From IMG/VR virus record IMGVR_UViG_3300032205_000001, positions 1 to 44,217 of that record: a stretch of 44,217 nucleotides of DNA; one strand, given 5' to 3'. Of the stretch, positions 6,430 through 36,865 are shown one piece after another. The stretch is from a virus. Lineage: Duplodnaviria > Heunggongvirae > Uroviricota > Caudoviricetes. The position numbers and the translations under genes were made by a program. Each line of letters starts with the position of its first letter. The first letter of the stretch is position 1. The notes below the pieces were generated by a model. That model saw only the letters and a program-made list of their open reading frames with translations. It was not told where the DNA came from and did no database searches.

Positions 6430-6935
6430 TTCTGGTCCTGGCGGTTCGCTTCCTGCCCGGCGGCGATGCCTTTGCTGAGCTGCTGTACGAGATACAGGGC
6501 GATCGAATCGACGATGTGCTCTTCGATAGACGCACCGAGGGCAGTCCTGAGAGTCGAATGAACTGTCTCTGCTGAGACGACCTGTTCAGCTGAAACGCCA
6601 GCTCGTACGCTGTTGACACCAAGCCGGAAAGCAATCATGCCGGCTTCTTTGACGTGCGCTGCCATTCGGACAGCCGGCCCAGGATCTGCTTCGTTTGTGC
6701 GCTTGGCATCTTCGCTGGCGTCCTCCTGATCGGTTTGACGATTGATCTGTGCGGCATAGGCTGCACGTCCCTCGGGAGTGATCGCAAAGAACACAATTCC
6801 CTCGAAATCATGAAACTCGGCGAACTTCTGCTTGAGAAGTGCGTCTCCCACTGGATTCGGCTTGTAGTTCTCGCGCCGAATGCTGCCGACGATCAGCTGC
6901 TTGAGTAGTTCCATCTGTGGCTGGGGGATTCTCAT
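6426..6935 (-). CDS. hypothetical protein (169 aa)
   Basis: Start MRIPQ gives ATGA overlap with 6932. Confidence 0.75.
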   Translation of the reverse strand: MRIPQPQMELLKQLIVGSIRRENYKPNPVGDALLKQKFAEFHDFEGIVFFAITPEGRAAYAAQINRQTDQEDASEDAKRTNEADPGPAVRMAAHVKEAGMIAFRLGVNSVRAGVSAEQVVSAETVHSTLRTALGASIEEHIVDSIALYLVQQLSKGIAAGQEANRQDQK

Positions 6936-7096
6936 TTTGTCTCGTCCGTTGGTGGGAATTGTTTTCTTGCAACGAACCCTTTTCCGTTGCAGATCTTGCA
7001 AGCTGTCTTCTTCGGCACCCAGAGAAAACCACGACCTTCGCAGTTCGAGCACTCCATGAGTCGATCGTCGCCAGGCTTAGCTTCGGTCTTCCTCAT
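6932..7096 (-). CDS. small DnaJ-type zinc-finger-like protein (CxxCxGxG x2, 54 aa)
   Basis: CSNCEGRG...CKICNGKG; ATGA overlaps at both ends. Confidence 0.75.
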   Translation of the reverse strand: MRKTEAKPGDDRLMECSNCEGRGFLWVPKKTACKICNGKGFVARKQFPPTDETK

Positions 7097-7347
7097 AGAT
7101 AGATGTACTCCTTGCTCTTGTCTCCGTTCGGCCTTCTGCGACCCGTGTACGGGTGTCGCATCCAACCCTCGGGTTCAGAGCTGCCGTCCCAGGCGATCAG
7201 GGTAGCGACCGCTACCGCAGGTTCGTCGTATCACCAGCCGTCGTCAACCACTGCACCATCACCGATGATGATGCGGGCTCGTCCGAAGGTTAGTTCAACA
7301 ACCTCGGCGATTCTGCCGTCGGGCATGATCTTCTTGTAGAGCGTCAT
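7093..7347 (-). CDS. candidate selenoprotein (84 aa; in-frame TGA at codon 39); not in ORF track
   Basis: MTLYKKIMPDGRIAEVVELTFGRARIIIGDGAVVDDGW-(TGA 7233-7231)-YDEPAVAVATLIAWDGSSEPEGWMRHPYTGRRRPNGDKSKEYIYL; ATGA coupling at both ends; SECIS-like hairpin downstream of the TGA. Confidence 0.72.
7201..7216 (-). promoter_or_regulatory. SECIS-like RNA hairpin
   Basis: mRNA GGUAGC-GGUC-GCUACC beginning 14 nt after in-frame UGA; resembles E. coli fdhF SECIS GGUUGCA-GGUC-UGCACC. Confidence 0.65.
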
Positions 7348-7805
7348 TGTGGGAACTTGCACTCGTTGCCCTTACCGTCGCCGTGCCAGTCGTACTTGGG
7401 ATGGGCCCAGGTTTTACAGACCGGACACTGCCTGAATTGGGCTGCGTTCTTCTCGAATTCTTCTTTGTATAGCTCTTCTAGGCTGTCGATTTGATCGATG
7501 AGGTCTCGAAGTGCTGACCGTACGCTGTCAGCATCGCCGTCGATGTAGAGGCAATCGCCGGAGAAGAACGGCTTGGTCTCCTTGCCGTTCTCATCGTGCT
7601 CCGGCTGGCTGCTGTCGACCACGAGGCACTCGACGCGCATGCCCTTCCACTTCGGCGGGGCGTCGATGGTGCTGCCATACGGATGGGCGCTGCACGTCGC
7701 CTGAGGCTGCTTGCCATGGAACTCGTGGACGATTCTCATCGAGGGCACTATCTCGCTCACAACCCCAATTGTCCAGTGGAGCGCAAGCGTTTGCGCGCTA
7801 TCCAC
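7344..7805 (-). CDS. hypothetical protein, C-terminal CxxC (about 153 aa)
   Basis: Start uncertain (GTG 7805 or a later ATG). Confidence 0.7.
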   Translation of the reverse strand: MDSAQTLALHWTIGVVSEIVPSMRIVHEFHGKQPQATCSAHPYGSTIDAPPKWKGMRVECLVVDSSQPEHDENGKETKPFFSGDCLYIDGDADSVRSALRDLIDQIDSLEELYKEEFEKNAAQFRQCPVCKTWAHPKYDWHGDGKGNECKFPQ

Positions 7806-35510: not shown

Positions 35511-35579
35511 ATGGCACTGAACCTAAATCCAGTATCGGGGATGAAAATGTTCTGCTGCTCGCCGGTAGTGTCTCCATGA
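35511..35579 (+). CDS. putative 22-aa leader ORF
   Basis: GGAGG SD then MALNLNPVSGMKMFCCSPVVSP; stop overlaps ATPase ATG. Confidence 0.35.
   Translation: MALNLNPVSGMKMFCCSPVVSP
35542..35575 (+). promoter_or_regulatory. ECF-like promoter
   Basis: TGAAAA-N16-GGTAGT-N6-ATG. Confidence 0.7.
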
Positions 35580-36865
35580 TGAAGCTGCCGCTCACCTTGG
35601 GGACCACGCCCGACGGCGATGAAGTTCAGCTGCCTATCGATGCACTGCGCCGCCACATGCTGGCGCTCGGTGCTTCGGGTAGCGGCAAGACCGTGCTCTG
35701 TAAGGTCGTCGTCGAGGAGTGCATCCGTAAGCGGCTGCCCGTGATTGCGGTCGACCCGCAGGGGGACCTAGCTTCGCTGGCACTCTCGGAGGACCCGGCC
35801 GTGCTGGTCAAGATGGGAGTCGACGAGCGCACGGCCCACGAATTCCGTGAGCGTGTGGACGTGAAAATCTGGACCCCGGGCGCAACCATCGGCATCCCGG
35901 TTTCGTTCACGCCCAACATGACCGTTCCCGACGGAGTGAGGCCGGAGGACAGGCTCCGGGCATTCGGCGCTGTGGCGCAAGCCCTTGCGTCGATGGTGGG
36001 TGCGCAAAACGAGACCACGGCGACGGCTTTCTCCATGGTTTTGGAGTACGCCGACAACAACGGACTGGCCTGCGAAAATATCCAGGATTTCATCAACTTC
36101 CTGGCTGACCCGCCGGCACCGCTCGCGCGCTCGATGGATGTCGTGTTCGATTCCAAGGCCCGGAGCAAGGCCCACAAAGCCTTTCTCATCAAGACCTTGG
36201 GCGCGAATCGCCTGCTCTTTGACTTGGGCGCTCCCATCGATATCGATGAGATGTTCGGCCTGTACACGGGCGGACCGTCGGACACTGGGAAAGCGCGGCT
36301 GTCAATCATCTACCTGAACACCCTCACTTCACAGGAGGACAAGGAAATTTTCGTGTCTCTGCTTTGTAGTGCCCTGTACCAGTGGATGCTGACGCTTGAT
36401 GGTTCGCAGCTCTGGGGGATGCTCTACATGGATGAGGTCGCACCCTACCTGCCGCCGGTCAAGAATCCCGCTTCCAAGCAAGCGCTAATGATGCTGATTC
36501 GCCAGGCCCGGAAGTACGGCTTGTGCTGTCTGCTCGCAACGCAGAGCCCAGGGGACATCGATTACAAGGCGATGGGGCAGGTGGGCACGATGGCCATCGG
36601 CCGCATCATGGGCGAGCGTGCTCTCGGCAAGGTCGAGCCGCTCATTCGTGCGCAGCCGGGGACGGATACGGATGCCATCATTCAAGGGCTGCCGGGCATG
36701 TCCAAGGGTCGATTCGTGCTCGTGAATCCCGACGTGTACGAGCATCCGACGGAGGCGCAAGTGCGTTGGCTGGTGAGCAAGCATGTCAACGTGACGGCGG
36801 ACGGAGTCGCCGACCTAGTTACAGACGAGGACCGTGAAAATCTCGGTCGTGGCGGTTGTAGTTAG
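35576..36865 (+). CDS. HerA/DUF87-like P-loop ATPase (FtsK/HerA superfamily)
   Basis: Walker A GASGSGKT, AVDPQGD, Walker B LYMDE, RQARKYG, ATQSPGDID. Confidence 0.88.
   Translation: MMKLPLTLGTTPDGDEVQLPIDALRRHMLALGASGSGKTVLCKVVVEECIRKRLPVIAVDPQGDLASLALSEDPAVLVKMGVDERTAHEFRERVDVKIWTPGATIGIPVSFTPNMTVPDGVRPEDRLRAFGAVAQALASMVGAQNETTATAFSMVLEYADNNGLACENIQDFINFLADPPAPLARSMDVVFDSKARSKAHKAFLIKTLGANRLLFDLGAPIDIDEMFGLYTGGPSDTGKARLSIIYLNTLTSQEDKEIFVSLLCSALYQWMLTLDGSQLWGMLYMDEVAPYLPPVKNPASKQALMMLIRQARKYGLCCLLATQSPGDIDYKAMGQVGTMAIGRIMGERALGKVEPLIRAQPGTDTDAIIQGLPGMSKGRFVLVNPDVYEHPTEAQVRWLVSKHVNVTADGVADLVTDEDRENLGRGGCS

Follow-up and report, generated by a model that had tools for sequence, protein, structure and literature searches.

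A conserved in-frame UGA coupled to a covarying SECIS-like hairpin points to a selenoprotein family in bacteriophages

The window, by which we mean the whole 44,217-nucleotide stretch of DNA analysed here, comes from an uncultured large phage and is part of a 114,930-base IMG/VR virus record (IMGVR_UViG_3300032205_000001) that is ~60% complete and has 57% GC. Its genes are mostly small unknown ORFs, and a HerA/FtsK-like ATPase (35576-36865, plus strand; PF01935 and PF05872 matched above their cut-offs) is among the few recognisable ones. An earlier note on this DNA, made from the letters alone, had described a gap in an operon that is filled exactly by one frame, with ATGA overlaps at both ends and a single in-frame TGA at codon 39. 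The frame, its overlaps and the internal TGA (7233-7231) are all present, with the following layout.

7093..7347, minus strand: gene of 84 codons plus stop (ATG 7347-7345, terminal TGA 7095-7093), belonging to a phage protein family without characterisation; codon 39 of its translation is the proposed selenocysteine (Sec) UGA
7231..7233, minus strand: internal UGA at codon 39, proposed to encode Sec; context DDGW*YDE, where strand beta-4 ends
7201..7216, minus strand: SECIS-like hairpin GGUAGC-GGUC-GCUACC, assigned by covariation, UGA-form specificity and bacterial SECIS (bSECIS) criteria
7344..7347, minus strand: ATGA overlap 5' of the gene, made of its ATG (7347-7345) and the TGA (7346-7344) of the upstream ORF 7344-7805
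7093..7096, minus strand: ATGA overlap 3' of the gene, made of its TGA (7095-7093) and the ATG (7096-7094) of the downstream ORF 6932-7096

As the TGA at 7346-7344 ends the upstream ORF, TGA terminates translation 110 nt 5' of the UGA that is proposed to be recoded. Within one mRNA, UGA would do two jobs, as the recoded codon 39 and as the terminator of the same gene. Standard annotation was expected to split or miss such a gene, and gene callers do split it, while in relatives the codon is miscalled as Trp (see below). The translationally coupled downstream ORF (6932-7096, minus strand) encodes 54 aa and contains two DnaJ-type zinc-finger repeats (CxxCxGxG); its match to PF00684 reaches 27 bits, short of the 32.7 required. 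The neighborhood is not conserved, as none of 11 flanking ORFs recurs beside the gene in relatives. Arrays of tRNA genes flank the gene in only five of ~29 loci (L006, L007/L008, L009, L012, and L019), and at L007 the family gene sits between tRNA-His and tRNA-Phe. No tRNA genes were found in the 115-kb record that contains the window.

To the first relatives we added sequences from two IMG/VR scans and one GTDB genome scan, giving a non-redundant set in which the codon at the column of UGA-39 is TGA in 63 cases, TGC in 15, TGT in 8, GAC (Asp) in 2, and TAG in 1. The 63 TGA-form homologs are distinct sequences with 45 to 68% identity, on contigs of 32 to 75% GC, and most of them keep the hairpin as well as the TGA. 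Where the earlier note had considered that close relatives might have TGG or TGC and lack the hairpin, they instead have TGA with the hairpin.

Several observations bear on whether the ribosome passes this codon. Over the 14 codons that follow the UGA, the entropy among the 63 TGA forms is 0.92, 1.07, and 1.55 at codon positions 1, 2, and 3, and the very next residue is Tyr in 59 of the 63. The family's strongest motif conservation, EPxGWxRHPxxGRRRPxGDxxxEY, falls within the 45 codons downstream of the UGA, and no in-frame restart codon is conserved there; 21 of the 63 TGA forms lack any within 19 codons. An AlphaFold2 model of the full-length protein (pLDDT 97.7) is a compact domain of four strands and one helix, followed by a basic GRRRPxGD tail, with residue 39 at the end of beta-4. 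The entropy pattern, the absence of a conserved restart codon, and the predicted one-domain fold together indicate that translation continues past the UGA, in keeping with the earlier observation that the part behind it reads as protein.

The family is large. A full HMM search returned 1,089 cluster representatives at E≤1e-3 and 310 at E≤1e-10, for a family with the motifs W-C-Y ... EPxGWxRHPxxGRRRPxGDxxxEY; searches of Pfam and PHROGs gave no family match. The earlier note placed Cys opposite the UGA (W-C-Y), and Cys is indeed found there in the jumbo-phage proteins described below, in most of the best representatives, and in the nearest non-TGA relatives. Among the best 150 of the 1,089 representatives, 97 have Cys at the column, 19 Asp, 8 Glu, 7 an apparent Trp, 5 Gln, 3 Arg, and 3 His; over the wider family of 1,089 clusters, Cys accounts for ~63%. 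The nearest non-TGA relatives, which share the LTFGRARI motif, have Cys and are 50 to 55% identical. Cys is also invariant in four annotated homologs from cultured jumbo phages, namely those of Caulobacter phages C2 (UTU08481.1) and CcrBL9 (AXQ69281.1), Brevundimonas phage Kabachok (USN13937.1), and Sinorhizobium phage Phosso (XYS97833.1). All four are members of the same family at 37 to 43% identity, are annotated as hypothetical protein, and share W-C-Y, EPxGW, RHP, and GRRR with the window gene, but they have TGC at the column, no in-register hairpin (1 to 5 of the 6 pairs), and longer N-termini.

The fold gives few hints of function. Foldseek found no match in the PDB at E≤0.001, and among AFDB clusters it found only uncharacterised members of the same family; a CxxU or UxxC redox motif is absent from the protein. 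Because Asp, Glu, Gln, His, and Arg are tolerated at the column, and Leu and Gly derivatives occur (see below), residue 39 seems less indispensable than typical catalytic Sec sites, which suggests a residue that is useful rather than essential.

In a maximum-likelihood tree, 61 TGA/TAG forms, that of the window among them, cluster together next to Cys forms. Three other TGA forms (L093, L115, and L118, all on viral contigs) are nested inside a well-supported Cys clade, and the branches starred in the tree force at least two changes at the column. As judged from the sequences, this nesting implies an independent switch from Cys to UGA. Of these three, L115 clearly forms a hairpin in the same place, with CGUGU as its loop; the hairpins of L093 and L118 are weaker or different.

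The perfect hairpin that had been reported 14 nt after the UGA is present at 7216-7201, with a 5' arm at 7216-7211, a loop at 7210-7207, and a 3' arm at 7206-7201 that pair over 6 bp. It folds with -8.2 kcal/mol on its own and with -14.0 kcal/mol within 48 nt. In the window's genome, 39 of 623 TGAs (6%) that bridge two open stretches of at least 30 codons have a comparable hairpin, defined as at least 5 bp with a G-containing loop at that distance from the TGA, and so a hairpin in a single sequence says little and its significance comes from relatives only. A search of the same genome for a second selenoprotein gene, by what is a crude and non-specific scan (39/623 sites), gave no convincing case.

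Among relatives the signal is clear. In an ungapped alignment of 28 sequences the helix is in register, with 85% of cells paired versus 69% when shuffled, and the covariation score is 0.527 versus 0.227, a value that 0 of 500 shuffles reach; as a control, sliding the 3' partner collapses the pairing. One pair, 27-36, joins two third-codon positions and appears as GC in 8 sequences, AU in 5, UA in 5, CG in 4, and a wobble pair in 4. All six in-register pairs are found in 50 of 63 TGA forms versus 0 of 23 Cys forms, for which the mean is 2.96, and in most of the exceptions this hairpin is retained but has a loop of 5 nt. When the register is allowed to vary, a hairpin is found in 57 of 64 TGA/TAG forms versus 3 of 23 Cys forms (Fisher p = 4.8e-11), leaving 7 of the 64 that fail the hairpin criteria. 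The loops in the set are GGUC (47), AGUU (7), and CGUG (5).

The loop is also visible at the level of codons. Its synonymous sites are constrained across TGA forms, and the codon that supplies the loop GU encodes Val in 59 of 63 TGA forms versus ~21% of Cys forms, which alternate among Ile, Leu, and Val. This fixation of Val in TGA forms indicates that an RNA requirement has shaped the protein sequence, and the comparison as a whole identifies the hairpin as a selected RNA element tied to the UGA. A search of the family loci against Rfam matched tRNAs only and no SECIS family.

The bSECIS consensus has a loop of 3 to 9 nt, a stem of 4 to 16 bp, a distance of 16 to 37 nt from UGA to loop, and a minimum free energy of at most -7.5 kcal/mol (PMC13188914), with G within the first two positions of the loop and most often G or U after it (PMC13188914). 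Scored against this published description, the hairpin of the window, with its 4-nt GGUC loop, 6-bp stem, 20-nt spacing, and -8.2 kcal/mol, falls within all four ranges. The closest parallel is E. coli fdhF, whose element had been quoted as having the same loop; on NC_000913.3, UGA codon 140 is indeed followed after 11 nt by GGUUGCA-GGUC-UGCACC, a string for which a literature search gave no match. Both genes have an in-ORF stem-loop after the UGA with an identical apical GGUC. They differ in that the fdhF loop starts 19 nt after the UGA, compared to 21 nt in the window, and in that the fdhF stem has a bulged U, whereas the stem of the window is perfect.

Like bacterial selenoprotein genes, the phage gene has Cys-containing homologs. 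Unlike them, it comes without Sec machinery of its own, is unrelated to known selenoprotein families, and has no recognisable redox motif. A few eukaryotic viruses redefine UGA as Sec (PMC8310308), and they resemble the present case in that a virus gene relies on the Sec insertion machinery of its host. Those viral genes, however, use a 3'-UTR SECIS with SBP2 and eEFSec and encode homologs of cellular selenoproteins, whereas the hairpin of the window gene lies within the ORF, as in bacteria, and the protein family is specific to phages.

Selenocysteine insertion depends on cellular factors, and we searched for these in the phage records. No selB, selD, or tRNA-Sec was found in the five records G000 to G004, and from this lack of Sec machinery we infer that SelA, SelB, SelC, and SelD would come from the host. 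One metagenome-assembled genome (MAG) that holds a TGA-form contig encodes a full-length SelB (343 bits). A second MAG, which lacks SelB, contains this contig as well; these two are the only bins that hold it, and their taxonomy conflicts.

All sequence-testable features of a bacterial-type selenoprotein gene are present at this locus, and every such test that was run came out in favor of the selenoprotein reading put forward in the earlier note. At the level of sequence, the comparison demonstrates a conserved UGA, apparently translated through, that is coupled to a covarying, UGA-specific hairpin and replaces the Cys of relatives; that the residue inserted is Sec is our inference from these features. 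We consider it highly probable that the gene encodes an 84-residue phage selenoprotein, with Sec at UGA-39 inserted by the SelB/SECIS route of the host. In such a route, a ribosome would reach UGA-39, the hairpin starting 15 nt downstream would be bound through its GGUC loop by the host SelB-GTP-Sec-tRNA(Sec) complex, and this complex would deliver selenocysteine in competition with release factor 2 (RF2). Translation would then proceed to the ordinary UGA terminator. The mechanism would be known bacterial Sec insertion, and the new part would be a selenoprotein family borne by phages.

Other readings of the UGA have to be weighed against this one, beginning with those in which the codon is an accident or the code itself has changed. 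The earlier note held that TGA is the ordinary stop here and that any recoding is specific to one site. This is borne out, as TGA is the commonest stop in the 114,930-base record, ending 273 of 498 ORFs of at least 80 aa, and it also terminates 37 of 62 TGA-form family genes. Reading TGA as sense more than doubles the spurious ORF content of the record, which does not qualify as a case of genome-wide TGA reassignment (NCBI tables 4/25) and has no matching suppressor tRNA. The one observation that favors reassignment, to Trp or Gly, comes from three metagenomic relatives (53 to 68% identity, found by a word-index protein search), whose database proteins have Trp at the column, a residue that, according to the earlier note, would speak against the selenoprotein reading. 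Their DNA has TGA at this position, and the apparent Trp arises because the gene caller used a code with TGA=W. Such calls wrongly merge adjacent genes. At L007 the call fuses two genes, since the TGA there precedes a GAGG ribosome-binding site and the ATG of a distinct DUF1508 gene, and at L009 the extension runs into a tRNA gene. The TGA=Trp calls are a systematic annotation artefact for TGA-form selenoprotein genes. In the public gene calls, proteins P0002 to P0005 (L007:1172-1600 and L009:341-604) have Trp written at the Sec site; the L007 miscall joins a 73-aa ORF to the DUF1508 gene, and the contigs are short. A sequencing error or a nonsense mutation in a pseudogene, for its part, could not turn up at the same position of 63 divergent sequences, let alone alongside a covarying hairpin. 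Genome-wide recoding, pseudogene, and sequencing error therefore have next to no probability in our estimate, being excluded by the 63 TGA forms and by the TGA terminators.

Two further readings accept the UGA as genuine and dispense with Sec. Were it a real terminator, the gene would yield a 38-aa peptide, the downstream part would be a separate small ORF or untranslated, and the hairpin would be a regulatory or stability element. That TGA ordinarily terminates genes in this genome and that standard gene callers split the gene speaks for this, but we hold it to be very improbable given the clear coding pattern and top conserved motifs of the 45 codons after the UGA, the lack of a conserved in-frame start (again, with none within 19 codons in 21 of 63), the single uninterrupted ORFs of the Cys-form homologs, and the joining of both halves in one domain of the AlphaFold2 model (pLDDT 97.7). 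A programmed readthrough independent of SelB deserves more attention, although it too is unlikely. Here the hairpin would slow the ribosome or hinder RF2, a near-cognate tRNA (Trp or Cys) would read the UGA, and the 38-aa and full-length products would be made in a set ratio. UGA is the leakiest stop codon, many residues are tolerated at the column in the wider family, and Leu and Gly substitutes occur. Yet the only hairpin-stimulated UGA readthrough in bacteria known to us is that by SelB and SECIS. Plain readthrough also leaves aside that the hairpin agrees with the bSECIS consensus in every respect, with a SelB-type GU loop held by synonymous-site selection and Val fixation, that sister sequences carry Cys and not Trp, and that a UAG variant retains the same hairpin in a 74%-GC contig, as in hosts that use UAG for Sec.

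This variant, L068 (codon at L068:660-662; IMGVR_UViG_3300031939_000001, genome G007), has TAG at the column, an intact GGUC hairpin, and a contig of 72 to 74% GC. Geodermatophilaceae encode Sec with UAG by means of a tRNA-Sec(CUA) and a bSECIS, according to Mukai et al. 2016 as cited in PMC5330540. The likeness lies in the TAG codon and the retained SECIS-like hairpin of L068; the differences are that L068 is a phage gene known from a single sequence and that the codon in the window is UGA. By this analogy, L068 fits a host that would encode Sec with UAG. TAG terminates 17 of the 54 long high-GC3 ORFs on its contig, although at 72% GC recoding is not rigorously excluded by a test on ORF length. 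The contig carries a single tRNA, Trp-CCA, and no suppressor tRNA.

Other variants leave the stop codons altogether. At the column, L137:301-582 and L138:153-464 carry TTA (Leu) or GGA (Gly), codons that differ from TGA by a single base; both keep the hairpin, whereas a close TGC form lacks it. From their sequences, the TTA and GGA forms seem to have escaped from Sec coding recently. L137 is flanked by an HTH repressor and a phage integrase and so belongs to a temperate element.

Taken across the family, it is likely that phages carry a widespread selenoprotein family (>60 lineages, 32 to 75% GC) whose expression is tied to host SelB and Sec. The family would track host biology by at least two independent Cys-to-UGA switches, by a shift to UAG in one phage of very high GC, paralleling the actinobacteria that use UAG for Sec, and by one-step escapes to Leu or Gly with a relic SECIS. 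If so, phages exploit the 21st amino acid, and the UGA/SECIS arrangement could mark host range or could gate the full-length protein to selenium-replete, Sec-competent cells. The searchable literature treats selenocysteine insertion as a trait of cells and of a few eukaryotic viruses; our targeted searches of it found no report of phage selenoproteins, and phages go unmentioned in a 2026 review of the prokaryotic selenoproteome. The family would show phages using a specialised recoding pathway of the host and would give a sequence marker that predicts Sec-competent hosts for uncultured phages. It also exposes an annotation error, by which such genes are broken up, overlooked, or given a Trp through use of the wrong code, which also fuses neighboring genes. 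With 84 aa and a minimal 16-nt element, the gene would offer a compact and directly testable SECIS system.

The tRNA searches yielded one further observation. Sub-threshold tRNA-Sec matches in the phage records proved to be a tRNA-Ser and an amber-suppressor-like tRNA. A 104-nt tRNA with anticodon CUA lies at L036:1502-1605 on the minus strand, which corresponds to G003:C1:93164-93267 of the 180-kb record IMGVR_UViG_3300032893_000002. It is of the amber suppressor type, with a variable arm of ~30 nt, scores 59 bits against the Rfam tRNA model, was missed by ARAGORN, and is not a tRNA-Sec. The phage that carries it has its own copy of the family gene (L034), which keeps the C-terminal half only.
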